Shown here: one piece after another, positions 25,728 through 48,085 of the stretch
Layout of the letters: each line of letters starts with the position of its first letter
How positions within the stretch are numbered: position 1 is the first letter of the stretch
IMG/VR virus record: IMGVR_UViG_3300032246_001650
Coordinates: 1-53,245 of that record
Length of the DNA stretch: 53,245 bases
Direction: 5' to 3' (one strand)
From: a virus
Taxonomy: Duplodnaviria > Caudoviricetes
Position numbers and translations under genes: made by a program
Notes under the pieces: model-generated
What the model saw: only the letters and a program-made list of their open reading frames with translations
What the model was told of the DNA's origin: nothing
Databases searched by the model: none

Positions 25728-25816
25728 AGTCAGGTGGCGGAATGGTAGACGTATTAACTCACTGAGATGACTTCAATTCGAGAAAAGATTTGCAGGTTCG
25801 AATCCTGTCCTGACTA
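25728..25816 (+). ncRNA. tRNA-Leu-like element with non-canonical central domain
   Basis: AGTCAGGTGGCGGAATGGTAGACG...GCAGGTTCGAATCCTGTCCTGACTA. Confidence 0.75.
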
Positions 25817-25969
25817 CAAACATGTAAGAAATTTATCTTGCATATATTTATTATCGTACAACAGGTACAATCAGTAGCCCCAGACCCGCTAGATGCGTAT
25901 AAGAATGTCGACCGTGGAGCCCTCAGTATTAAGCCTTGAGTACACAACCACATACAAAAACAAAAAATA

Positions 25970-28997: not shown

Positions 28998-29082
28998 AGT
29001 CAGGTGGCGGAATTGGTAGACGCAGTAGGGAGAGCCAAAGAGGTATCTACGAAAGTTATAGGTTCGAATCCTGTCCTGACTA
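28998..29082 (+). ncRNA. tRNA-Leu-like element with expanded anticodon loop
   Basis: Canonical Leu D arm GGCGGAATTGGTAGACGC; GTAGG/TCTAC stem closes a 16-nt loop; family acceptor and T arm. Confidence 0.75.
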
Positions 29083-38964: not shown

Positions 38965-39050
38965 GCCGCGGTGGGGAAACAGGTAGACCCGCAAGACTTA
39001 AAATCTTGTTCGCCGAAAGGTGAGTGCCGGTTCGATTCCGGCCCGCGGTA
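38965..39050 (+). tRNA. tRNA-Leu(TAA)
   Basis: Cloverleaf, CAAGA-CTTAAAA-TCTTG, long variable arm. Confidence 0.93.
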
Positions 39051-39081
39051 CAAAAATAAAAAATTATAATATTTATACAAA

Positions 39082-39234
39082 ATGAAAAAAGTTATTTTAG
39101 CGATCGCAGTAATGTTTGTTTTAGCTTCTTGTGCTAACAACACTTCAGAATCAATTGATATTGATTCATTGTCAGCTGATTCTATCACCGTTGATACGAT
39201 TTCAGTGGACACTACAGGCACGGACAGCCTTTAA
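39082..39234 (+). CDS. 50-aa acidic lipoprotein (not in the ORF track)
   Basis: MKKVILAIAVMFVLASC lipobox followed by D/S/T-rich tail. Confidence 0.75.
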   Translation: MKKVILAIAVMFVLASCANNTSESIDIDSLSADSITVDTISVDTTGTDSL

Positions 39235-39245
39235 TTGTCCTTTAA

Positions 39246-39317
39246 GCTTCTGTAGTTTAGCAGGTAAAACTTCGGATTTGTAACCCGACGTCCCCAGTTC
39301 GACCCTGGGTGGAAGCT
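39246..39317 (+). tRNA. tRNA-Thr(TGT)
   Basis: Cloverleaf, loop TTTGTAA. Confidence 0.88.
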
Positions 39318-39324
39318 CAATAAT

Positions 39325-39397
39325 GCGATAGTAGCTCAGTTGGTAGAGCATCACCTTGCCAAGGTGAGGGTCGCAGGTTCGAACCCTGTCTATCGCT
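39325..39397 (+). tRNA. tRNA-Gly(GCC)
   Basis: Cloverleaf, loop TTGCCAA. Confidence 0.95.
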
Positions 39398-39457
39398 CAG
39401 AATGTTGAGAATGGGAGCTTATTCCACAACAACCACTGCAGTGGTAAATAAGTGCCT

Positions 39458-39534
39458 GCGGGTGTCGTATAATGGTTTTATTATATTAGACTTCCAATCT
39501 AAGGATGAGAGTTCGATTCTCTCCACCCGCTCCA
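39458..39534 (+). tRNA. tRNA-Gly(TCC)
   Basis: Cloverleaf, loop CTTCCAA, encoded CCA. Confidence 0.92.
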
Positions 39535-39625
39535 AAAAGAAAAAAAAAAGAAAAAAAAATTTAATATAGTTTGGCATTTTGAAATTCCTTACATATATTT
39601 ATAACATATTAAAAAACATAAAAAA

Positions 39626-39779
39626 ATGAAACATTGTCAGTCATATCAATTTAGTCTTAAAGCCGCTTGGATGAATCGTCCGGTGTCTGAAGATATTAGA
39701 TTGAATGGGCTTATGATGTGATGTTTTTGAAACATATTGAAACACAAAGTAAGCCCGGTTCACAAGATCGGGTTTTTTT
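39626..39779 (+). promoter_or_regulatory. Leader peptide (39626-39721) with terminator/antiterminator
   Basis: 31-aa uORF; terminator AAGCCCGGT..ATCGGGTTTTTTT (39751-79); GGGCTTAT (39707-14) is complementary to GTAAGCCC (39749-56). Confidence 0.65.
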
Positions 39780-39780
39780 A

Positions 39781-39792
39781 GTTCTTTGACAT
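39781..39792 (+). promoter_or_regulatory. boxA-like antitermination element
   Basis: GTTCTTTGACAT, repeated at 41461 and 42210; GTTCTTTAACAT at 45339. Confidence 0.65.
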
Positions 39793-39804
39793 ATGAGAAG
39801 CAAT

Positions 39805-39877
39805 GCGACGGTAGCAAAGATGGTCAATGCGCTGGACTGAAAATCCAGTCATGCAGGTTCGAGTCCTGCCCGTCGCA
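39805..39877 (+). tRNA. tRNA-Phe(GAA)
   Basis: Cloverleaf, loop CTGAAAA. Confidence 0.93.
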
Positions 39878-39887
39878 CAAATAATAT

Positions 39888-39963
39888 CGTGGGGTAGAGG
39901 AGGCAGGTTTATCTCATCCGCCTTGGACGCGGAGGCACGTGGGTTCGAATCCCACCTTCACGA
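39888..39963 (+). tRNA. tRNA-Pro(TGG)
   Basis: Cloverleaf, loop CTTGGAC (A37). Confidence 0.88.
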
Positions 39964-40025
39964 CAAAAAAAATCGTATAATGTGAAATGCGCAATCACAG
40001 CAGGTTAAGCGATATCCTGCATTAT

Positions 40026-40099
40026 GACTTCGTAGCTCAATAGGTTAGAGCACCTCACTTTTAATGAGGGGGTTTCGAGTTCGAGTCTCGACGGGGTCA
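40026..40099 (+). tRNA. tRNA-Lys(TTT)
   Basis: CCTCA-CTTTTAA-TGAGG. Confidence 0.94.
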
Positions 40100-40206
40100 C
40101 AAGCTGTTATGCTTCAGAAGTGCTAGTTAGTGAAACACCTAATTGATGAGCCCATCAAAAAGTGAGTAGTTTTTGTAGTAACTACTTAAAATTAAACTAC
40201 AAAGTT

Positions 40207-40279
40207 CTTTCCTTAACTCAATTGGCAGAGTGCTCTCTTTACATGGGAGGAGTTATTGGTTCGAGTCCAGTAGGAAAGA
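40207..40279 (+). tRNA. tRNA-Val(TAC)
   Basis: Cloverleaf, loop TTTACAT. Confidence 0.88.
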
Positions 40280-40287
40280 CAAAAAAT

Positions 40288-40369
40288 GCCAGTATCGCAT
40301 AGCGGCAATTGCAAGGGACTGTAAATCCCTCCTCTTCGGAGTTCGTAGGTTCGAGTCCTACTGCTGGCA
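40288..40369 (+). tRNA. tRNA-Tyr(GTA)
   Basis: Loop CTGTAAA, variable arm. Confidence 0.94.
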
Positions 40370-40476
40370 CTAATTAGATGAAAGACACTTCAGAGATGGT
40401 TGACAGGAATCGGCGTTAGCGGTTCTAATAAGTGTTTTTTAGTATGAAGTACAAATACTAAATAGTCTGATTATTT

Positions 40477-40550
40477 GGAGATATAGCTCAATTGGTTAGA
40501 GCACTTGCCTGATACGCAAGGGGTTATAGGTTCAAGTCCTGTTTTCTCCA
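40477..40550 (+). tRNA. tRNA-Ile(GAT)
   Basis: CTTGC-CTGATAC-GCAAG. Confidence 0.92.
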
Positions 40551-40559
40551 CAACTAAAT

Positions 40560-40635
40560 GGTGTATGTAGCTCAGAGGAAGAGTATCCGCTTGTGACGCG
40601 GAAGGTCGGGATTTCGAAATTCCTCATACACCCCA
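40560..40635 (+). tRNA. tRNA-His(GTG)
   Basis: G-1:C73, loop TTGTGAC, encoded CCA. Confidence 0.9.
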
Positions 40636-40639
40636 AATT

Positions 40640-40723
40640 GGAGAGTAAAACAGTAAGGTTGCTGTCACCGCCTGCTAAGCGAGTGGTACTTTCGGGTATG
40701 AATTTCGACTATTCTGCTCTCCG
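40640..40723 (+). tRNA. tRNA-Ser(GCT), divergent
   Basis: GGAGAG acceptor, loop CTGCTAA, variable arm, G73; atypical D and T arms. Confidence 0.75.
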
Positions 40724-40753
40724 CTATGTAAAACTATTTATAAAAAACAGATT

Positions 40754-41206
40754 ATGAACTTCAGGACTCTATCAAACAGAAAAACAGTTGACTTAGTTGA
40801 CTATGTTAAAGCGTATTTAAACGACAATCCCGACACAGAATTGTTAGTTGGGTGCGATTCGCAAAACTATGCATATAACACGACATATGCAACTGTAGTT
40901 GCACTTTATAAACCAAAGGGCGGCGCGCATGTTTTATTTAATAAGGAAATTTTACCTATTGAAAGAACAAGACAAGTACGTTTAATGAATGAAGTTTGGA
41001 AATCTATTGAAGTAGCAGAATTATTAAAAAATTCAGGTTTACCTCAAGTTAAATATATTGACATAGACATCAACCCAGACAAAAAATATAAATCAAATGA
41101 AGTGTTAAGAGCAGCAGTTGGTTTAGTTGAAGGTATGGGTTATACAGTTAGATACAAATCAATGGGTGTAGCTGCAACTTACGCCGCAGATATGTTAGTA
41201 AAGTAA
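40754..41206 (+). CDS. RNase H-like YkuK-family protein
   Basis: LLVGCDSQ, RLMNEVWKS, IDIDIN, ATYAAD. Confidence 0.82.
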   Translation: MNFRTLSNRKTVDLVDYVKAYLNDNPDTELLVGCDSQNYAYNTTYATVVALYKPKGGAHVLFNKEILPIERTRQVRLMNEVWKSIEVAELLKNSGLPQVKYIDIDINPDKKYKSNEVLRAAVGLVEGMGYTVRYKSMGVAATYAADMLVK

Positions 41207-41213
41207 CTAACAC

Positions 41214-41287
41214 GGTTCCTTAGCTTAATGGATTAAAGCACTTCGCTACGAACGAAGAGAGTATAGGTTCGAGTCCTATAGGAACCT
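41214..41287 (+). tRNA. tRNA-Arg(ACG)
   Basis: CTTCG-CTACGAA-CGAAG. Confidence 0.93.
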
Positions 41288-41295
41288 CAAAATAT

Positions 41296-41366
41296 GGTCA
41301 GTTGTCCGATTGGTAAGGTGTGGCTCTGCAAAAGCCTTTATATAGGTTCAAATCCTATACTGACCT
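41296..41366 (+). tRNA. tRNA-Cys(GCA)
   Basis: Loop CTGCAAA, U73. Confidence 0.9.
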
Positions 41367-41373
41367 CAAAAAT

Positions 41374-41444
41374 ACGAGTGTGGTGAAATGGTATCATTTT
41401 GCTCTCCAAAAGCAAAGTTGAGGGTTCGAATCCTTCCACTCGTG
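41374..41444 (+). tRNA. tRNA-Trp(CCA)
   Basis: TTGCT-CTCCAAA-AGCAA, G73. Confidence 0.92.
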
Positions 41445-41483
41445 CTCGAATGTTTTTTATGTTCTTTGACATATTTATTATTG

Positions 41484-42137
41484 ATGGTAGATATCAAAAA
41501 TAATTTAGAAAAAATTTTATCTGGAGAGATAAAATTACAATATTGTGCTTCTATAAGAAAACATATATTATTAAATAATATATTTGATTATAAATGTAAT
41601 AAATGTGGAATTCATGAATGGATGGGACAAAAAATTACATTGGAAATAGAACATAAAGATGGAGATAATTGGAATAATAAAAAAGAAAATTTAGAGTTTT
41701 TATGTCCTAATTGTCATTCATTAACATCTACTTTTAGAAAAAAGAAAAATAAAAAACAAAAAAATATAATAAGTGATGAAGAAATAATAGAAGCATTAAA
41801 AAACAATAAAAACATAAATCAAACATTGGTATCTCTAGGAATGGACAATTCAGGAGGTAACTATAAAAGGGTAATCAAAATATGTCAGAACAATAAAATA
41901 GAAATACCTAAAATAAAAAGAGAAAAAATAAAAAAAGAATCAGAATATGATAAAAAATTAACTGAAAGAATCAATAATATATTAAAAGCTAATATTGATT
42001 TTACTCAAAGAGGATGGAGATTGAAAGTAGAAGAAGTAACAGGAATCCAACCTCAAAGAGCAGATAAGTTTATTGTAAGATATTTTCCAGAATTAAAAGA
42101 TATTTTATATAAACATAAAGATAAAAAAGAAGGTTAA
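41484..42137 (+). mobile_element. HNH endonuclease inserted in the tRNA cluster
   Basis: CNKCG..W....ITLEIEHKDGDNWNN..ENL.FLCPNCHS; start moved past tRNA-Trp. Confidence 0.88.
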
Positions 42138-42234
42138 AAGTTTTTAAAACAGGTTTGGCCTTCGTAAAACATGATGTTATATTTACGTCATAATAAAAAG
42201 AAATAAAAAGTTCTTTGACATACGAGAAACAAAT

Positions 42235-42317
42235 GCCGAGGTGGTGGAAATGGTAGACACACCGGTCTTAGAAACCGGAGCCTTAAAAGCATGCGAGTTC
42301 GACTCTCGCCCCCGGTA
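42235..42317 (+). tRNA. tRNA-Leu(TAG)
   Basis: CCGGT-CTTAGAA-ACCGG, variable arm. Confidence 0.93.
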
Positions 42318-42326
42318 CAAAAATAT

Positions 42327-42401
42327 TCACTCATAGCTCAGCGGTAGAGCAAGCGGCTGTTAACCGCTAGGTCATAGGTTCGAATCCTATTGAGTGAGCC
42401 A
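42327..42401 (+). tRNA. tRNA-Asn(GTT)
   Basis: Loop CTGTTAA, encoded CCA. Confidence 0.95.
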
Positions 42402-42407
42402 ATAAAT

Positions 42408-42483
42408 GCTCCTGTCGTCTAATAGGTTAGGACGCCTCCCTTTCACGGAGATAACGCGAGTTCGAATCTCGTCGGGAGTACCA
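42408..42483 (+). tRNA. tRNA-Glu(TTC)
   Basis: Loop CTTTCAC, encoded CCA. Confidence 0.94.
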
Positions 42484-42579
42484 AATCATGGGCAGTCGAT
42501 TAATTAGCGGCAACTAATTTAAGTACTGTATGTGATCTGATATGTATGAGTAACTTGCCGGTGAAAGTATGTAACAGTT

Positions 42580-42652
42580 TTTCTTAAATGGTGTAAGATG
42601 GGTTAGCACACCGCGCGTAGCGGAGGCCGAGGTTCAAGTCCTCATGAGAAAC
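42580..42652 (+). ncRNA. tRNA-like RNA with truncated anticodon arm
   Basis: TTTCTTA/TGAGAAA acceptor, D arm GTG..GG..CAC, T arm GAGG-TTCAAGT-CCTC; anticodon arm is only CCGC-GCGTA-GCGG. Confidence 0.6.
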
Positions 42653-42663
42653 AAAAAATATAT

Positions 42664-42738
42664 TGCGGGGAAGATGAGCCGGTGCACACACGAGTCTCAT
42701 AAGCTCGGACTAGGTGGGTTCAACTCCCACTCCCGCAA
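42664..42738 (+). tRNA. tRNA-Met(CAT), initiator-like
   Basis: xGCGGGG/CCCGCAA acceptor, loop CTCATAA. Confidence 0.82.
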
Positions 42739-42746
42739 CTATAAAT

Positions 42747-42817
42747 TGTCCTTTAGAATAATGGCAGTTCACCTGACTTTGACTCAGGGCGTGTTGGTTC
42801 GAATCCAGCAGGGACAA
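42747..42817 (+). tRNA. tRNA-Gln(TTG)
   Basis: CCTGA-CTTTGAC-TCAGG. Confidence 0.92.
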
Positions 42818-42829
42818 CAAAAAATAAAT

Positions 42830-42904
42830 GGGCTTGCATGTACCAAGGCTAGGCGATTCTCCTTTGCACGGAGAGTGTGGTGAGTTCGATTCTCACCGGG
42901 TCCA
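42830..42904 (+). tRNA. tRNA-Ala(TGC)
   Basis: G3-U70, TCTCC-TTTGCAC-GGAGA; atypical D arm. Confidence 0.82.
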
Positions 42905-43026
42905 CAAAAACATAATATGGGTAGGTAGGATGTTAGTAGTCGTTCCCTAAATCACGGACTAACAAGGTAAAGCGTTCAGATTAAAAATTAGGTAAACGTT
43001 ATTAAAGTAGTATTATGTTTTTATTT

Positions 43027-43103
43027 GGCTCGTTAGTAGAGATGGTTACAATGTCGCCCTGTCACGGCGAAGGTCACGGGTTCGAGTCCCGTACGAGCCG
43101 CCA
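43027..43103 (+). tRNA. tRNA-Asp(GTC)
   Basis: Loop CTGTCAC, encoded CCA. Confidence 0.94.
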
Positions 43104-43230
43104 AGAAAAGCAGTGAAGCTGTAATTGAGAGGTAGAGTGTTTTAAATACCAAAAAAGGGTTAATAGTAGGTAGGCGTCACTCATTGCACTCAATCAGTAA
43201 CCCCGAAAGACCCGAAGCTTTTCTTATTAC

Positions 43231-43318
43231 GGAAGTTTGGCAGAGATGGATGATTGCACCGGTCTTGAAAACCGGCATACCAGAAATGGTATCGGGGGTT
43301 CGAATCCCTCATCTTCCG
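43231..43318 (+). tRNA. tRNA-Ser(TGA)
   Basis: CCGGT-CTTGAAA-ACCGG, long variable arm. Confidence 0.93.
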
Positions 43319-43325
43319 CAACTAT

Positions 43326-43397
43326 GGTTCCATAGTTAAATGGATATAACAAGACTCTTCTAAAGTCTGGTTCGTGGTTCGATTCCACGTGGAACTA
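43326..43397 (+). tRNA. tRNA-Arg(TCT)
   Basis: AGACT-CTTCTAA-AGTCT. Confidence 0.92.
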
Positions 43398-43403
43398 CAA
43401 AAA

Positions 43404-43471
43404 GGGATGCTTACAGCAATTTTTTTAACTATCAAACTTTTAATTTGAAAACAGTAAAAACACAGCATCCC
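43404..43471 (+). ncRNA. Stem-ACAGCAA RNA, copy 1 (carries a tRNA-Lys-like anticodon hairpin)
   Basis: GGGATGCT/AGCATCCC; ACAGCAA at 43413; TCAAA-CTTTTAA-TTTGA at 43432-48. Confidence 0.75.
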
Positions 43472-43483
43472 GTAACTTCTTAA

Positions 43484-43549
43484 GGGCTTCTAACAGCAAC
43501 TATTAAAAACTCAAATTCCAAAATCATTTGACCGATAAAATAGAAGCCC
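43484..43549 (+). ncRNA. Stem-ACAGCAA RNA, copy 2
   Basis: GGGCTTCTA/TAGAAGCCC; ACAGCAA at 43493; TCAAAT/ATTTGA internal hairpin. Confidence 0.75.
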
Positions 43550-43629
43550 GTAAATTTTAAAAATCTCTTTTAATATAGTTTGGCTATGTAAAAGATTTAT
43601 ATTATATTAATATTATAAAAGAAATTAAA

Positions 43630-43684
43630 AGGATTCAGACAGCAATTTTAAAAACTTTCATTGGTAGAAAAAATACGGAATCCT
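43630..43684 (+). ncRNA. Stem-ACAGCAA RNA, copy 3
   Basis: AGGATTC/GAATCCT; ACAGCAA at 43639; TTTC-ATTGGTA-GAAA hairpin. Confidence 0.72.
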
Positions 43685-43692
43685 GAAACTTC

Positions 43693-43837
43693 TTGAGGTA
43701 ATGAGTACAAACAGCAATTATTAAAGATACATATCAATTAATAATTACAAACTAACACCTCAGTCATCGACTCCCCTAGCCGGTGCACGTACTCAGTAAC
43801 ACCTCAAACGTTGGCTAGGAGTGGGTCATGGCAGAGG
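43693..43837 (+). ncRNA. Stem-ACAGCAA RNA, copy 4, with pseudoknot or alternative pairing in the 5' leader of the DUF2828 gene
   Basis: TGAGTAC/GTACTCA plus TTGAGGT/ACCTCAA; ACAGCAA at 43711; CCTAGCC (43775-81) pairs with GGCTAGG (43813-19). Confidence 0.68.
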
Positions 43838-43865
43838 CTTAATTTAAAAAAAAGAAATAAAAGAT

Positions 43866-45242
43866 ATGAGCAATTTAATTAACGCAATGAGACAAAAAGA
43901 TGCCTTTACTGCTAACGGCGCTTTAACAAACTCTACTTCTTTAAACGCAGTTGTAGATATGTTCTTTTTAGCAGGTGCTTCTCGTAGAATGTCAGAACAA
44001 GATATTATTAATGTGTTTGTAAAAGCATATAATGAAGACCCTAATTTGACTGTTAAATGTTTATTTTGGGCTCGTGACGTTAGAGGTGGTGCTGGTGAAC
44101 GTAGATTCTTCCAAATCATCATGAATTATATCTCTTCTAAAGATGATAAAAATTTCATTAACTTATTAGGACATACTCCAGAATTTGGTTATTGGAAAGA
44201 CATTTTTACTTTAACAACTCCAAATAAAGTTTTATTGACTTGGGTTGAAGAAGAACTTAATAAAGAAAATAATGGATTGTTAGCTAAATGGTTTCCACGT
44301 AGAGGTGTTTGGTTCTCTTCAATGCATAAGTTTTTAGGAATGACTCCAAAAGAATTCCGTAAACTAATTGTTGGAAAAACTAAAGTAGTTGAAACTGCTA
44401 TGTGTAGTAAAGAATGGAATACTATCGAGTATTCTAAAATTCCATCACAAGCTTTCCAAAAATATAAAAGAGCATTTTTAAGAAATGATGAATCTAGATT
44501 TAATGATTTCATTGGTGCTGTTATAAAAGGTGAAGCTAAAGTAAATTCAAGTACTTTGTTCCCATATCAATTATACCGTTCATTCCTACAAGGTTTAGAT
44601 AAAAATTCAACTATGGCTCAATGGATGAATTTACCAGATTATGTTGGTGAAGGATCATTTTTACCTGTTTGTGACGTTTCTGGTTCAATGATGGGTTTAC
44701 CAATGGACATATCTATTTCATTAGGTGTTTACTTATCAGAAAGAAATAAAGGATTATTTAGAGATGCTTTTATTACTTTCTCAGAAGAACCAAAATTACA
44801 ATATTTAACAGGTAATATAATTGAAAAATTTAATCAATTACAAAGAGCAGAGTGGGGTATGTCAACTGATTTAGTGGCTGTATTTGATTTAATATTAAAT
44901 AAAGCAATTGAAAATAGATTACCTCAATCAGATTTACCAGAAAATATTTTGATTATCTCAGATATGGAATTTAATCATGCTTGTAGAAATAGAACTAATT
45001 TTGAAGTAATTCAAGATAAGTTTGAAGCTGCAGGTTATAAAATGCCAAAATTATCTTTTTGGAATGTAAATGGAAGAGAAGGTAACGTACCAGTATCAGC
45101 AGATACTAAAGATGTAGCCTTAATTTCAGGAGCTTCACCAGCAATCGTTAAAAACGTTTTAGAAGGTAAAGATTTCACTCCAAAAGGTATCATGTTAGAA
45201 ACTCTAATGAGTGAAAGATATGAAAAAATTGTAGCTCTTTAA
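43866..45242 (+). CDS. DUF2828-family protein (helical TROVE/Ro60-like N-terminus + vWA domain)
   Basis: TANGA..ST....VDMFF, LFWARDVRGGAGER, FGYWKD, LAKWFPR, VCDVSGSM MIDAS, FITFS, ISDMEF, FWNV. Confidence 0.85.
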   Translation: MSNLINAMRQKDAFTANGALTNSTSLNAVVDMFFLAGASRRMSEQDIINVFVKAYNEDPNLTVKCLFWARDVRGGAGERRFFQIIMNYISSKDDKNFINLLGHTPEFGYWKDIFTLTTPNKVLLTWVEEELNKENNGLLAKWFPRRGVWFSSMHKFLGMTPKEFRKLIVGKTKVVETAMCSKEWNTIEYSKIPSQAFQKYKRAFLRNDESRFNDFIGAVIKGEAKVNSSTLFPYQLYRSFLQGLDKNSTMAQWMNLPDYVGEGSFLPVCDVSGSMMGLPMDISISLGVYLSERNKGLFRDAFITFSEEPKLQYLTGNIIEKFNQLQRAEWGMSTDLVAVFDLILNKAIENRLPQSDLPENILIISDMEFNHACRNRTNFEVIQDKFEAAGYKMPKLSFWNVNGREGNVPVSADTKDVALISGASPAIVKNVLEGKDFTPKGIMLETLMSERYEKIVAL

Positions 45243-45257
45243 TTAGAGCTACTTAAC

Positions 45258-45331
45258 GGGCCTTTAGCTCAGTTGGTTAGAGCAGCGCACTCATAATGCG
45301 AAGGTCACAGGTTCAAGTCCTGTATGGCCCA
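45258..45331 (+). tRNA. tRNA-Ile2/Met(CAT)
   Basis: GGGCCT acceptor typical of lysidine-modified Ile2; loop CTCATAA. Confidence 0.88.
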
Positions 45332-45375
45332 CAAGGAAGTTCTTTAACATATTAAAAAGAAAAGGAAAATAAAAA

Positions 45376-45737: not shown

Positions 45738-46199
45738 GTGAAATCATTCTGGTTCATCGTACTTTTATTGTTTCCTTTAACTCTGTGTTCTCAAATAAAA
45801 GTTGATAAAGCAGGAGATGGATGGGATTCTGTAGTTTATTCTGCTATTGATCTTATCAAAAAAACATCTCCACTTCATTATGCTGTATTAATGGAAACAA
45901 CTCAAAATGTACAATTTTGGAAAGAAGATTATTCATCAAATAATTTAATAGAAGGAAAAGGTGTTATTGTAATTTCATCTCAAGACATTAAGTTAAACAG
46001 TTTAAATAATATAGCTGCTGCCTTAATACATGAGAGTTACCATTTAAAGTTTCTTAAGTATGGTCCTGATTTAACAGGTTATGAAGAAGAATATCAATGT
46101 TATTTATATGAATTAAAGTTTTTAAAGTTGTTGCCACAAGTAGAGCCCTATCTATTAGCGCATGTAAAAGAACAACTTAAACTTTGGAATATAAAATGA
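45738..46199 (+). CDS. Secreted zincin-like metallopeptidase
   Basis: Signal peptide; ALIHESYH (HExxH)...EE. Confidence 0.65.
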   Translation: MKSFWFIVLLLFPLTLCSQIKVDKAGDGWDSVVYSAIDLIKKTSPLHYAVLMETTQNVQFWKEDYSSNNLIEGKGVIVISSQDIKLNSLNNIAAALIHESYHLKFLKYGPDLTGYEEEYQCYLYELKFLKLLPQVEPYLLAHVKEQLKLWNIK

Positions 46200-48085
46200 A
46201 AAAACTAATCTCTCTATTACTGACTGCAGTATTCTATTTAGGATTATCTGCTCAATCAGCTTCAACCTCTCCTGGAACAGGACATTGGGTTGTGATCGAC
46301 TCAGGTTATCAAGTAGCTACTTCGACTACTGGAAAAACTGTTACTCCTCTTTATTTCTATAACACATCAACCAGTGAAAAAATCACAGGTATGCAGTTTA
46401 GAATCCACTACGACAAAACTGCCTTTGTTGGTGTTATTCCTTCATTAAAAATTTCTACCTCAGATCAATACTTACAATATACAGATGATAATGTAAATGG
46501 ACATTTAACTGTTACTGTTGTTTATACAGGTACTAATTCTACATTTAATTATTCAAACGGTGCTACTTTTGATTTAACTTTTACTCATGCTTCAGATGCT
46601 GTTTGGAATACTTTAGATAGTATCAAGAGTTTAAAAGTTTCTGGTGTTGGTTCTTTCCCTAACTTAGCTTCAACTAATTTTGGTAATGATACTACTTTAG
46701 TAGTTTATTCTTACGGTGGTAGAATGAATCAGAAAATGTTAAGATTTGCTGGTAAATTTATTAACGTTACTGGAACAAATGCTAAAAACTTATGGGTTGC
46801 TTTAGAAAAGAAATCACCTACAGGAACTTGGACTCAAGTAGAAGCTAAATCTACTAATTCAAATGGTCATGTAGTATTCTTTAAAAACATTGATACTACC
46901 TATTGGGATGTTAGAATGACAATTAAAGGTGATACTATGACTCCTGGTTCAGTATTCTCAACTGCTGATGCTCAAAAAATTAACCAAGTAATGCTTTCTA
47001 CCTATACTCCTAAAGGATTTGATTTTTATACAATGGATGTAAATGGAACAGATGGTAATATTACAATTGCAGATGTTTATTCAGTTTATGGAAGATTAGC
47101 AGGTAGATTCTCAACTTGGCCAAATGGTAAAAAAGATGTAATGTTCTTTACTGTAGCCGAATATAATGCAATCAATGGTTCAGCTACTAACTTAGTTGGT
47201 ACTTATGGAACAAATTATAACTTAATTTATAATATCGATGGTAAAGATTCTATTACTTATTATGTAGCAGTTAAGGGTGATGCTAATGCGACTGGATTTA
47301 AAATGGCTCGTTTAACGCCTATACAAATTATAAATCCATCTAATGCTAAAAATTATATTATTGACAATACCGTTTCATATGATAACGTTATAGAAACTAT
47401 AGAGGTTAATATGCCAACTGTTAATGTTGATGAAGGTAATTTAGTTAATGTACCTGTTAAAGTTTTAACTGGTGGTAAATCATTAGGCGCTGTACAATTA
47501 GAATTAAAATACGATACTGCTTTATTAGAATTTAAGAAAATTGATTTAACTGAAAAAATGTTAAATTGGACTTCATATACTAACCCTGATAATGGAGTTG
47601 TAGCTTTTGGTTCAGCTGATTTAAAAGGTGGTAATTGGTTATTAGATGGTGAGAAAGTAATGGATTTACAATTCGTTGCTAAAAAACCTCAATCAGAATG
47701 GGGTACCGCAGCTATCTGGACTGGTCCTAAATTTGTAGGAGGTACTAATGCTCAAGATATGAACATCACTCCAGCAATGGGAATTGTACAAGTTAGAAAA
47801 ACTAAATCAGGTATTAATGTATTAGGAGTAGAAAAATTAATTTCATTCCCTAACCCAACAGATGGTGAAGTATTTATTGAATTCAGAGTAGACTACGATT
47901 CAGAAGTTGCTTTAAATGTAAATAATTTAATTGGTCAAAGAGTATTAGAGGTGTTAAATGAAAGAATGCCTGCAGGTGATTATAAGTACATTGCTAATTT
48001 AAATCAATTAGCTAATGGGATGTATATTATGACTTTACAAACTAGTACTACATCTAAGTCTCACAAAATATTTATCAACAAATAA
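46196..48085 (+). CDS. Secreted cohesin/dockerin-like protein with T9SS C-terminal domain
   Basis: Signal peptide; ITGMQF...YD and GAVQLELKYD cohesin-like strands; DVNGTDGNITIAD; FPNPTDG...LANGMYI...KIFINK. Confidence 0.8.
   Translation: MKKLISLLLTAVFYLGLSAQSASTSPGTGHWVVIDSGYQVATSTTGKTVTPLYFYNTSTSEKITGMQFRIHYDKTAFVGVIPSLKISTSDQYLQYTDDNVNGHLTVTVVYTGTNSTFNYSNGATFDLTFTHASDAVWNTLDSIKSLKVSGVGSFPNLASTNFGNDTTLVVYSYGGRMNQKMLRFAGKFINVTGTNAKNLWVALEKKSPTGTWTQVEAKSTNSNGHVVFFKNIDTTYWDVRMTIKGDTMTPGSVFSTADAQKINQVMLSTYTPKGFDFYTMDVNGTDGNITIADVYSVYGRLAGRFSTWPNGKKDVMFFTVAEYNAINGSATNLVGTYGTNYNLIYNIDGKDSITYYVAVKGDANATGFKMARLTPIQIINPSNAKNYIIDNTVSYDNVIETIEVNMPTVNVDEGNLVNVPVKVLTGGKSLGAVQLELKYDTALLEFKKIDLTEKMLNWTSYTNPDNGVVAFGSADLKGGNWLLDGEKVMDLQFVAKKPQSEWGTAAIWTGPKFVGGTNAQDMNITPAMGIVQVRKTKSGINVLGVEKLISFPNPTDGEVFIEFRVDYDSEVALNVNNLIGQRVLEVLNERMPAGDYKYIANLNQLANGMYIMTLQTSTTSKSHKIFINK

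Follow-up and report, generated by a model that had tools for sequence, protein, structure and literature searches.

A cluster of small hairpins lies beside a phage tRNA array in a 53,245-nt viral DNA stretch (IMG/VR record IMGVR_UViG_3300032246_001650, Caudoviricetes; hereafter the window), and one of them has a loop identical to the anticodon loop of a tRNA encoded in the same window. Do such hairpins mimic anticodon arms, and if so, what might present them and to what end? A first-pass annotation of the sequence had claimed an exact tRNA-Lys(UUU) loop in the first of three ACAGCAA-containing RNAs and weaker Pro-like and Trp-like resemblances in the third and second, and had suggested that these RNAs could be protein-presented decoys or sensors against tRNA-cleaving defences. 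We examined the hairpins, the RNA units that carry them and the distribution of related units across phages and bacteria.

The hairpins and their RNA units

Direct reading of the sequence confirmed the hairpins as they had been described. Copy 1 (TCAAA-CTTTTAA-TTTGA) and the tRNA-Lys(UUU) at 40026 (CCTCA-CTTTTAA-TGAGG) both have 5-bp stems and share an identical 7-nt loop. Copy 3 (TTTC-ATTGGTA-GAAA) has a 4-bp stem and a 7-nt loop with U at position 2 (U33) but U rather than a purine at position 6 (position 37); the loop of the window's tRNA-Pro is CTTGGAC. Copy 2 (TCAAAT-TCCAAAATC-ATTTGA) has a 6-bp stem and a 9-nt loop that contains TTCCAAA out of register, the tRNA-Trp loop being CTCCAAA. 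Copies 2 and 3 thus fail the criterion of a 7-nt loop with U33 and a purine at 37, as the annotation had suspected. The hairpins lie in the variable parts of three of four tandem units, and the features of the region, all on the plus strand, are as follows.

38965-43398 (+), tRNA array of 22 tRNA genes (ARAGORN and Rfam), ending 6 nt before unit 1 and including tRNA-Lys(UUU) at 40026-40100
43404-43475 (+), unit 1: helix GGGATGCT/AGCATCCC, T, ACAGCAA, variable module, 3' tail GTAA; found by a stem scan; covariance model R1 (see below) 49.2 bits, E 1.2e-9; fold z-score -3.2
43432-43448 (+), unit 1 hairpin TCAAA-CTTTTAA-TTTGA, an anticodon-arm mimic with the tRNA-Lys(UUU) loop
43484-43553 (+), unit 2: helix GGGCTTCTA/TAGAAGCCC, ACAGCAA, variable module, tail GTAA; R1 51.4 bits; fold z-score -3.9
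43511-43531 (+), unit 2 hairpin, 6-bp stem and 9-nt loop TCCAAAATC, not anticodon-like in register
43630-43688 (+), unit 3: helix AGGATTC/GAATCCT, AG, ACAGCAA, variable module, tail GAAA; R1 48.5 bits; Rfam RF01414 25.1 bits, below the gathering score of 41.5
43656-43670 (+), unit 3 hairpin TTTC-ATTGGTA-GAAA, with U33 present and U at 37
43702-43799 (+), unit 4: helix TGAGTAC/GTACTCA, AA, ACAGCAA, 71-nt variable module, tail GTAA; found by stem scan, with only a weak partial R1 match at 43702-43766 (E 0.12) and an ortholog in related locus L007 at 2837-2929
43866-45242 (+), DUF2828 + DUF7788 gene (458 aa), predicted Ro60-fold ring plus vWA domain with MIDAS D270-x-S272-x-S274, the presumed protein partner of the units
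45258-45332 (+), tRNA-Met(CAU), 16 nt after the DUF2828 stop codon

Each unit consists of a terminal helix, the motif NCAGCAA, a variable module, the 3' strand of the helix and then a G. Neither ARAGORN nor Rfam (RF00005) called a tRNA at 43404-43799, and Rfam at gathering thresholds found only tRNAs, indicating that the units themselves are not tRNAs. The z-scores of the four whole units were -3.2, -3.9, -0.5 and -2.6, but the hairpins are A/U-rich and thermodynamically weak: variable regions folded alone gave 0 to about -3 kcal/mol for most units, and some had no predicted hairpin at all.

Of the window's 25 ARAGORN tRNAs, 19 have loops of the form C-U-NNN-A-[A/C]. A hairpin of at least 4 bp with such a loop is expected in about 0.6 of 76 dinucleotide-shuffled variable regions, or roughly 1% per unit, and it is therefore unlikely that copy 1 arose by chance. 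Its loop is also kept in related loci (numbered with the prefix L), as CTTTTAA in L001-L003 and CTTTTAC in L007, and the loop of copy 3 recurs in L007 and L031.

Linkage to a gene for a predicted Ro60-like protein

In 108 related loci, ACAGCAA occurred 182 times on the strand of the DUF2828 gene (116 with a terminal helix of at least 7 bp) against 33 times (4 with a helix) on the other strand. The covariance model R1 found 250 units in 188 related loci at E<=0.05, 127 in viral/phage loci and 123 in genome loci. All 250 are on the gene strand, most within about 1 kb; 201 lie upstream (median 213 nt), 49 downstream (median 177 nt) and none inside the gene. At least one unit was present in 72 of 107 viral/phage loci and 61 of 80 genome loci, whereas 54 of these 187 loci had no detected unit. 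Whole-genome scans of five phages gave 17 matches, of which 15 lie within about 600 nt of the gene, one lies 1.8 kb away and one is a weak stray. Pairing of the handle helix was 100% in our alignment of units, but partly by construction because units were selected by their helix.

The units flank the gene in phages of Enterobacteria, Campylobacter, Listeria, Staphylococcus, Enterococcus, Bacillus, Mycobacterium, Aeromonas, Synechococcus, Sinorhizobium and Klebsiella and in a Lak phage, with protein identities of 25-45% to the window's protein. The protein is encoded in 711 of 50,697 phage records, and a representative search of DUF2828 returned 6664 hits at E<=0.001. The Pfam model PF11443 matched none of 14 control genomes, and the ESM Atlas gave only DUF2828 clusters from viruses and bacteria, with no information on eukaryotes.

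At the sequence level the protein is not detectable as a TROVE protein: Pfam gave only DUF2828 and DUF7788, and phmmer and profile searches against PDB Ro60 chains were not significant (profile E about 0.9). A single-sequence AF2 prediction was unusable (pLDDT 40), but AF2 with an alignment gave a model with pLDDT 94.4. The top 13 Foldseek PDB hits of this model are all Ro60/TROVE, with full-length matches that include phage phiLo Ro60 at E 2e-9 and Xenopus Ro60 at TM 0.62-0.64. The MIDAS residues D270, S272 and S274 are invariant in 62 sequences.

RtcB is adjacent to the gene in 26 of 80 bacterial genome loci, in 23 of them full-length on the same strand and 20-130 nt downstream, but in only 1 of 107 viral/phage loci. 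In addition, the cluster L mycobacteriophage LeBron carries a Ro-like protein, an RNA ligase and a polynucleotide kinase (PMC13148394).

The only RNA-library evidence consists of short contigs over units 3-4 (43633-43863 and, in two others, 43708-43893), which are a weak hint at best because they cannot exclude DNA carry-over; lack of contig cover elsewhere in the window carries no meaning.

Anticodon-like loops and other tRNA parts across the family

We next asked, as the first-pass annotation had proposed, whether 7-nt loops with U33 and a purine at 37 are enriched in homologous units over shuffled controls. Variable regions were clustered at 80% identity, since clustering at 60% lumped unrelated A/T-rich units. 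Such loops occurred in 12 of 53 representative units against 4.6 +/- 2.0 expected, in 19 of 76 against 5.3 (including an independent subset of 9 of 29 against 1.8) and in 31 of 88 genome-set units against 8.0. In the last three of these tests, none of 1000 shuffles reached the observed count. Because the set of 53 largely overlaps the exact-motif part of the set of 76, the independent replications are the 29 variant-motif units and the genome set, neither of which shares units with the first set. Loops of the form C-U-NNN-A-[A/C] were found in 13 of 76 units against 0.62 expected and in 17 of 88 against 0.64. Nevertheless, only about a quarter to a third of units (25-35%) carry a U33/R37 7-nt loop.

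With respect to loop size, only 7-nt loops and their breathing forms of 9-11 nt were enriched (106 of 164 units against 63.0 +/- 5.6). Stems of the canonical loops are 5 bp in 18 of 30 cases, and the most frequent triplets among these 30 loops are UUU (7), UGA (5) and CAU (4). The displayed triplets have no complementary tRNA anticodons, for which reason loop-loop kissing with tRNAs was rejected, and CUUUUAA and CUUCUAA do not fit a YUNR antisense-type loop.

Longer units carry other parts of tRNA. A relaxed NCAGCAA scan with long-range stems gave 154 long spans, most of them chance, and we therefore used only the 30 with a T-arm such as GGTTCGAATCC. Some of these, read by eye, are permuted (L011, L023, L028, L131 and others) or normal-order tRNA bodies with anticodon arms such as CTGAAAA, CTTGTAA, CTTAAAA, CTTCTAA and CTACGAA. 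No such tRNA-like domain is present in the window's four units.

Interpretation

The first-pass reading of these RNAs as protein-presented anticodon decoys or sensors is only partly supported. The enrichment of anticodon-like loops over shuffled controls, which that annotation had proposed as a check, is positive, and the association of the units with a gene for a predicted Ro60-fold protein fits presentation by a protein, but a decoy or sensor action against PrrC or AriB remains hypothetical, and because other units display T-arms or whole tRNA bodies, the general theme is tRNA mimicry on a Y-RNA-like handle rather than anticodon decoys specifically.

The reading that we favor, with a probability of roughly 60%, is that the units belong to a Y-RNA-like RNP that presents tRNA mimics in tRNA damage and repair. 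Each RNA has a constant handle, namely a 7-9 bp helix joining its ends, followed by 0-2 nt (often U/UU), a single-stranded NCAGCAA and a G straight after the 3' strand. We infer that this handle would be the docking site for the Ro60-shaped DUF2828 protein encoded immediately downstream, as Y RNAs dock on Ro60. In this view the variable module presents a piece of tRNA: in minimal units such as copy 1 an anticodon-arm look-alike (5-bp stem and 7-nt C-U-NNN-A-A loop, here Lys UUU), and in longer relatives a T-arm/acceptor/D-arm 'elbow' like that of YrlA or a whole or circularly permuted tRNA body. The RNP might use these mimics to engage proteins that recognise tRNA (RtcB-type ligase, exonucleases, anticodon nucleases) and thereby serve surveillance, repair or protection of the tRNA pool during infection, next to the phage's own tRNA array. 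The anatomy of the units, their conserved linkage, the predicted protein fold, the loop enrichment and the RtcB neighborhood rest directly on our analyses, whereas binding of the RNAs by the protein, their processing into separate RNAs and their biochemical role are inferred.

If correct, this reading would give DUF2828, a very large family with no assigned function, a conserved partner RNA and would make it a second, sequence-unrelated branch of the Ro60/Y RNA system, one found in well-studied phages (Felix O1-like, Listeria P100-like, cluster L mycobacteriophages, Staphylococcus and Campylobacter phages). The modular tRNA mimicry and the RtcB linkage bear on what Ro/Y RNPs do with tRNA-like domains and on how phages defend their translation apparatus against tRNA-cleaving immunity.

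Comparison with known systems

Bacterial Ro60 (Rsr) with its Y RNAs, especially YrlA (Chen et al. 2014, PMC4201824), likewise combines a ring-plus-vWA protein with small RNAs encoded beside it on the same strand; in Salmonella the operon is rsr-yrlBA-rtcBA. In both cases the RNA ends form a helix that is the presumed protein handle, a second module mimics tRNA (T-arm, acceptor and D-arm, with the anticodon stem opening toward the handle, as in L011 and L023) and RtcB lies adjacent. In contrast, the DUF2828 protein is not recognisable as TROVE by sequence, and the handle is a plain helix plus single-stranded NCAGCAA that resembles neither the known bulged Ro60-binding helix nor the CGAA motif. 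No Rfam Y RNA or YrlA model matched at E<=10 in the window region or at E<=1 in eight loci. Many units are minimal (46-70 nt) and display only an anticodon-arm mimic, and some keep a complete anticodon arm. The phage YrlA loci tabulated by Chen et al. and the outgroup candidates of Kjellin et al. (below) might bear on how novel the present family is.

Thermus phage phiLo (PMC12135203; PDB 9L5Y, 9KOP) also encodes a Ro60-fold protein, the top structural match to the window's protein, with partner RNAs (Yrl1/Yrl2) just upstream of its gene. However, phiLo's protein is a sequence-recognisable TROVE protein, its Yrl RNAs were picked by a CGAA motif in a bulge, and we found no tRNA array or NCAGCAA motif in the description consulted.

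The handle also resembles Dictyostelium Class I RNAs (RF01414; Kjellin et al. 2021, PMC7919456). These RNAs are 42-65 nt long and have a 6-bp terminal helix starting with G, directly followed by a conserved motif whose Rfam consensus reads CCUUACAGCAA, then a variable A/U-rich remainder, an A-rich run before the 3' strand and UG after the helix, an arrangement that the phage units resemble when the Rfam consensus is set against our alignment of them. RF01414 is the best Rfam family for 7 of 11 units scanned in three distant phages, but at 19.7-28.4 bits all scores are below the gathering score of 41.5. The helix, the (U)U-NCAGCAA motif and lengths of 46-70 nt in the phage units match the last 8-9 positions of the 11-nt Class I motif, although its first two C's are not conserved; the positions reported as invariant in Class I RNAs (U3, C6, C9, A10, A11) are also kept in the phage motif. 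Class I RNAs are eukaryotic, are driven by a DUSE promoter about 60 nt upstream and were reported as unique to Dictyostelia, whereas the window is a virus record in which an ORF carrying a Bacteroidota-type T9SS sorting domain suggests a Bacteroidota host. Their known direct binder is the RRM protein Rnp1A, and four Class I-binding proteins are reportedly listed by Avesson et al. 2011. A search for longer proteins found fungal DUF2828 proteins but none named as dictyostelid, which does not show absence.

It is possible, although on present evidence unlikely, that the NCAGCAA handle defines one ancient RNA family spanning phages, bacteria and eukaryotes. Class I RNAs, which are abundant and of unknown mechanism, would then be its eukaryotic members and ligands of a Ro-like DUF2828/TROVE-type protein, which offers a concrete hypothesis for a 20-year-old orphan RNA class. 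The family might work as a programmable display system in which one protein handle presents interchangeable tRNA parts (anticodon arm, elbow, whole body), each addressing a different tRNA-recognising enzyme or nuclease.

Lastly, phage tRNA arrays and tRNA-repair genes counter tRNA-cleaving defences, as with T4 Pnk/Rnl against PrrC and T5 tRNA-Lys against PARIS. The genomic setting and the conflict over the integrity of anticodon loops of tRNAs such as Lys(UUU) are the same, but those are functional tRNAs or enzymes, whereas here a non-tRNA RNA merely displays a tRNA part on a presumed protein handle.

Alternative explanations

The foremost alternative, which we consider doubtful, is the original decoy model, in which anticodon-arm mimics held on the Ro-like protein competitively bind or are cut by host anticodon nucleases (PrrC, PARIS AriB, VapC, colicin-like) and so spare the real tRNAs. 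Loops match real anticodon loops exactly, the units are embedded in phage tRNA arrays and tRNAs lie within the flanks of 76 of 187 loci. tRNA-Lys(UUU) is the target of PrrC and AriB, initiator tRNA(CAU) is the target of some VapCs, and anticodon stem-loop minihelices are substrates for several anticodon nucleases. However, most units lack such a loop and many display the tRNA elbow instead, which is not the cleavage site. UUU-rich loops are also what A/T-rich sequence favors, and modified bases needed by some nucleases may be absent from a mimic. The bacterial loci with RtcB suggest a housekeeping or repair role rather than an anti-defence one, and the RtcB linkage points at least as much to tRNA repair or surveillance as to decoying.

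It is less likely still that the units are cis-regulatory operators in the 5' or 3' UTR of the DUF2828 mRNA that mediate autoregulation. They do lie within a few hundred nucleotides of the gene on the same strand, and the last upstream unit often ends 20-80 nt before the start codon. Yet there are up to six copies per locus, they occur on either side of the gene, each is closed by its own helix, some are whole tRNA-like bodies or sit inside tRNAs, and they are spaced like genes of a tRNA array.

Alternatively, the anticodon-like hairpins might be chance or purely structural hairpins in the A/T-rich spacers of an otherwise real RNA family. The weak stems, the poor fit of copies 2 and 3 and the variation of loop size from 4 to 17 nt in MFE folds are consistent with this, but it is already disfavored by the specificity of the enrichment for 7-nt loops, the 20- to 27-fold enrichment of C-U-NNN-A-[A/C] loops in independent sets (0 of 1000 shuffles reaching the observed counts), the preference for 5-bp stems and the coexistence with T-arm and D-arm modules.

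Finally, although long forms are clearly tRNA-derived and units abut tRNA genes, it is very unlikely that the units are decaying tRNAs or tRNA-processing signals linked only incidentally to DUF2828, because the NCAGCAA handle is not a tRNA feature, tracks the DUF2828 gene even where no tRNA lies within 2-2.5 kb (67 of 133 unit-bearing loci) and is conserved across phyla at 25-45% protein identity.

Organisation of the RNA units

The window is a 53-kb fragment of a virus record. It carries a tRNA array at 38965-43398, and four small RNA units with a shared plan begin right after its last tRNA. In each unit a helix of 7-9 bp joins the ends and is followed on the 5' side by 0-2 nt and the motif ACAGCAA, then a variable stretch, the 3' strand of the helix and a G. 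The features are:

43404-43475, unit 1, tail GTAA
43484-43553, unit 2, tail GTAA
43630-43688, unit 3, tail GAAA
43702-43799, unit 4, tail GTAA
43866-45242, neighbouring ORF with DUF2828 and DUF7788

ACAGCAA occurs 14 times in the window against 6.6 +/- 2.6 expected, and four of these occurrences fall within this 300-nt stretch. The first-pass annotation had reported anticodon-like hairpins in three of the variable regions, and this observation is confirmed exactly as described. The hairpin of copy 1 is TCAAA-CTTTTAA-TTTGA, with a loop identical to that of the window's tRNA-Lys (CCTCA-CTTTTAA-TGAGG), copy 3 forms TTTC-ATTGGTA-GAAA (43656-43670), and copy 2 forms a 6-bp stem with the 9-nt loop TCCAAAATC.

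Protein genes also lie inside the tRNA array (40754-41206 and 41388-42137), namely an RNaseH-like PF04308 protein and a 249-aa ORF with weak zinc-ribbon/HNH hits that overlaps tRNA-Trp at its start. Outside the main array (142-228, 25728-25817 and 28998-29082), two isolated 'tRNA-Ser' calls have odd anticodons (aga, act) and non-canonical loops (CTAGACG, TCACTGA), and a third Rfam tRNA match (40.6 bits) was not called by ARAGORN; these may be tRNA-like elements or pseudo-tRNAs. A 633-aa ORF at 46184-48085 has a cohesin domain and a T9SS C-terminal sorting domain, which is unusual for a phage protein and suggests a Bacteroidota host.

Short contigs from metatranscriptome libraries of two studies cover 43633-43863 and 43708-43893, at 1 mismatch each; they cover only units 3-4 and the leader of the gene. 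The contig over 43633-43863 starts 3 nt inside the predicted 5' end of unit 3. Contigs cannot prove ends or transcription, and this is only a weak hint of expression.

The neighbouring protein is predicted to have a Ro60 fold

Sequence searches of the DUF2828 + DUF7788 protein against solved structures found nothing significant. With a 62-sequence alignment, however, AlphaFold gave a model with pLDDT 94.4, and the 13 best Foldseek matches in the PDB are all Ro60/TROVE proteins (Thermus phage phiLo Ro60, Xenopus Ro60 at TM 0.62-0.64, human Ro60 and Deinococcus Rsr), followed by generic vWA domains. The MIDAS motif D-x-S-x-S is invariant. The protein is therefore predicted to be a Ro60-shaped ring with a vWA domain that sequence methods do not file under TROVE. 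Mycobacteriophage annotators already call it 'Ro-like RNA binding protein'.

The units are linked to the DUF2828 gene across phages and bacteria

The protein is encoded in 711 of 50,697 phage records, and a representative search found 6664 relatives at E<=0.001. In the first ten related viral contigs examined, every locus had ACAGCAA beside the gene, including relatives at 33% and 42% identity, and the same units flank the gene in GenBank phages of very different hosts. Across 108 loci the motif is 5.5 times commoner on the gene strand, where 116 of 182 copies have a terminal helix, than on the other strand, where 4 of 33 copies do.

We built a covariance model from 33 units. All 7 helix pairs show compensatory changes, although the 100% pairing is partly due to our selection of units. 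The model found 123 matches at E<=1 in 100 sources, all on the gene strand. At E<=0.05 it found 127 matches in the viral/phage set and 123 in 80 loci from bacterial and archaeal assemblies (the genome set). All 250 of these are on the gene strand, with 201 upstream, 49 downstream and none inside the gene, and 72 of 107 viral/phage loci and 61 of 80 genome loci have at least one. Five complete phage genomes (473 kb) gave 17 matches, of which 15 lie close to the gene, one lies 1.8 kb away and one is a weak stray. The core motif is NCAGCAA; in 111 distinct viral/phage units the first base is A in 73, U in 17, G in 5 and C in 3. The base after the helix is G in 120 of 123 genome-set units.

Anticodon-like loops are enriched in the variable regions

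An enrichment of 7-nt loops with U33 and a purine at position 37 (U2 and R6 of the loop) over shuffled controls had been proposed in advance as a test of the anticodon interpretation. We counted hairpins of at least 4 bp (G-U allowed) with 7-nt loops in the variable regions, using one representative per 80%-identity cluster, and compared the counts with dinucleotide-preserving shuffles.

Units with a U2 + R6 loop of 7 nt, observed and expected
Set 1 (exact motif, our own scan), 53 representatives: 12 against 4.6 +/- 2.0; 1 of 1000 shuffles reached the observed count
Set 2 (model matches), 76 representatives: 19 against 5.3; 0 of 1000
Independent subset of set 2 (variant motifs, not in set 1), 29 units: 9 against 1.8; 0 of 1000
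Set 3 (genome loci, unlike the earlier representatives), 88 representatives: 31 against 8.0; 0 of 1000

The stricter pattern C-U-NNN-A-[A/C], which is the form of 19 of the window's own 25 tRNAs, occurs 13 times against 0.62 expected in set 2 and 17 times against 0.64 in set 3. Among loop sizes 3-11, only 7 is enriched (106 of 164 units against 63.0 +/- 5.6), together with 9-11, which include the same hairpins with frayed closing pairs. The stems of the canonical loops are 5 bp in 18 of 30, and the displayed triplets are UUU (7), UGA (5), CAU (4) and GUA (2), plus twelve singletons. Nevertheless, two thirds or more of the units have no such loop, several have no hairpin at all, the stems are weak, and copies 2 and 3 of the window fail the criterion.

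Loops containing AUUGG(U), as in the window hairpin at 43656-43670, recur in distant phages (related loci L007:2766-2823, L031:1552-1606 and L017:20-73), and TTGGT is enriched in variable regions (11 units against 4.2 expected). It is possible, though speculative, that UGG pairs with a tRNA 3' CCA end, as in T-box and RNase P RNAs.

Longer units resemble other parts of tRNA

Long units carry T-arm hairpins such as GGTTCGAATCC, which were present in 30 of 154 long candidate spans, most of the rest being chance spans. We read 26 of these by eye and saw three layouts. The first is YrlA-like, with T-arm, acceptor 3' strand, closing loop, acceptor 5' strand and D-arm, and with the anticodon stem opening into the handle formed by the terminal helix and motif (loci L011 and L023). 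The second consists of permuted bodies that keep a full anticodon arm (L028, CTGAAAA; L131, CTTGTAA). In the third, bodies in normal order (D-arm, anticodon arm, T-arm) are enclosed by the handle where the acceptor stem would be (L161, CTTAAAA; L175, CTTCTAA; L145, CTACGAA).

In two loci (L009:2518-2636 and L009:2729-2848; L011:4395-4515 and L011:4525-4637), Rfam's tRNA model matches tRNAs of 113-121 nt whose anticodon loop carries a 45-54-nt insert made of a small hairpin followed by (A/U)CAGCA. The result looks like a tRNA with the handle motif grafted into its anticodon loop; GenBank annotates the Cronobacter phage S13 pair as 'tRNA-Ser' and 'tRNA-OTHER'. We thus read the window's short units as the minimal members of a family whose variable module is some part of a tRNA, although, as stated, several units have no hairpin.

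Genomic context

tRNA genes lie within the 2-2.5 kb flanks in 76 of 187 loci. The RNA ligase RtcB lies beside the DUF2828 gene in 26 of 80 genome loci (for example L140:3979-5181 and L149:3960-5216), mostly in Clostridia and including a complete chromosome (L190). In 23 of these it is full-length on the same strand 20-130 nt downstream, whereas L175 and L184 have it upstream and L152 has only a short partial hit. The operon layout is RNA units, then DUF2828, then RtcB, which repeats the known Ro60-Y RNA-RtcB arrangement. In the viral/phage set RtcB is near the gene in 1 of 107 loci, the Listeria phage. Cluster L phage LeBron encodes a Ro-like protein, an RNA ligase and a polynucleotide kinase (PMC13148394).

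Interpretation and relation to known RNAs

The anatomy of the units, their linkage to the gene and the loop enrichment are results of the analysis, but the following mechanism is inferred by analogy with Ro60 and Y RNAs. The handle would dock on the predicted DUF2828 ring, and the tRNA-like module would recruit or occupy tRNA-recognising proteins, such that the RNP would serve tRNA surveillance, repair or protection. We place a probability of about 0.6 on the RNP and mimicry. The first-pass interpretation, that the RNAs could be protein-presented anticodon decoys or sensors against tRNA-cleaving defences, is partly supported; the decoy model remains a live but doubtful sub-case. That the units are cis-regulatory elements, chance hairpins or tRNA remnants is less likely still. 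The larger finding is a widespread, apparently undescribed Y-RNA-like family linked to the DUF2828 Ro-like protein.

Of the related systems, Chen et al. 2014 searched only genomes annotated with a TROVE protein, the phiLo study describes a canonical Ro60 with CGAA-motif RNAs, and Iyer et al. 2021 mention ROT/TROVE proteins with a tRNA-like partner in a few jumbo phages. Literature searches on DUF2828, on YrlA in phages, on Ro-like proteins with bacteriophages and tRNA, on Ro60 with Y RNA, phages and tRNA-like RNAs, and on the motif with Ro60 found no description of these RNAs, although they did not extend to supplementary material or to two relevant papers, such that prior mention cannot be excluded. 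Rfam 15 has no family for them.

The only Rfam family that these units approach is RF01414, Class I RNA of Dictyostelium. It matches over its full length at 25.1 and 20.2 bits in the window, at 28.4, 23.2 and 19.7 bits in Aeromonas phage APT65, and at 22.4 and 22.4 bits in a Staphylococcus phage, all below the gathering score of 41.5. The two architectures appear to correspond in having a short helix starting with G, then ..UUACAGCAA, an A/U-rich variable part and an A-rich run, and the 3' strand followed by UG, although only the last 8-9 positions of the 11-nt Class I motif match and its first two C's are not conserved. The positions that Kjellin et al. call invariant are the ones kept in phages, but those authors reported Class I RNAs as unique to Dictyostelia. 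Among eukaryotes, plants are reported to encode DUF2828 proteins, and fungi (Fusarium, Trichoderma, Tolypocladium and others) encode DUF2828 + DUF7788 proteins of 845-1263 aa (entries P0272-P0334 of our search for longer proteins), indicating that the predicted Ro-like DUF2828 fold is also eukaryotic.
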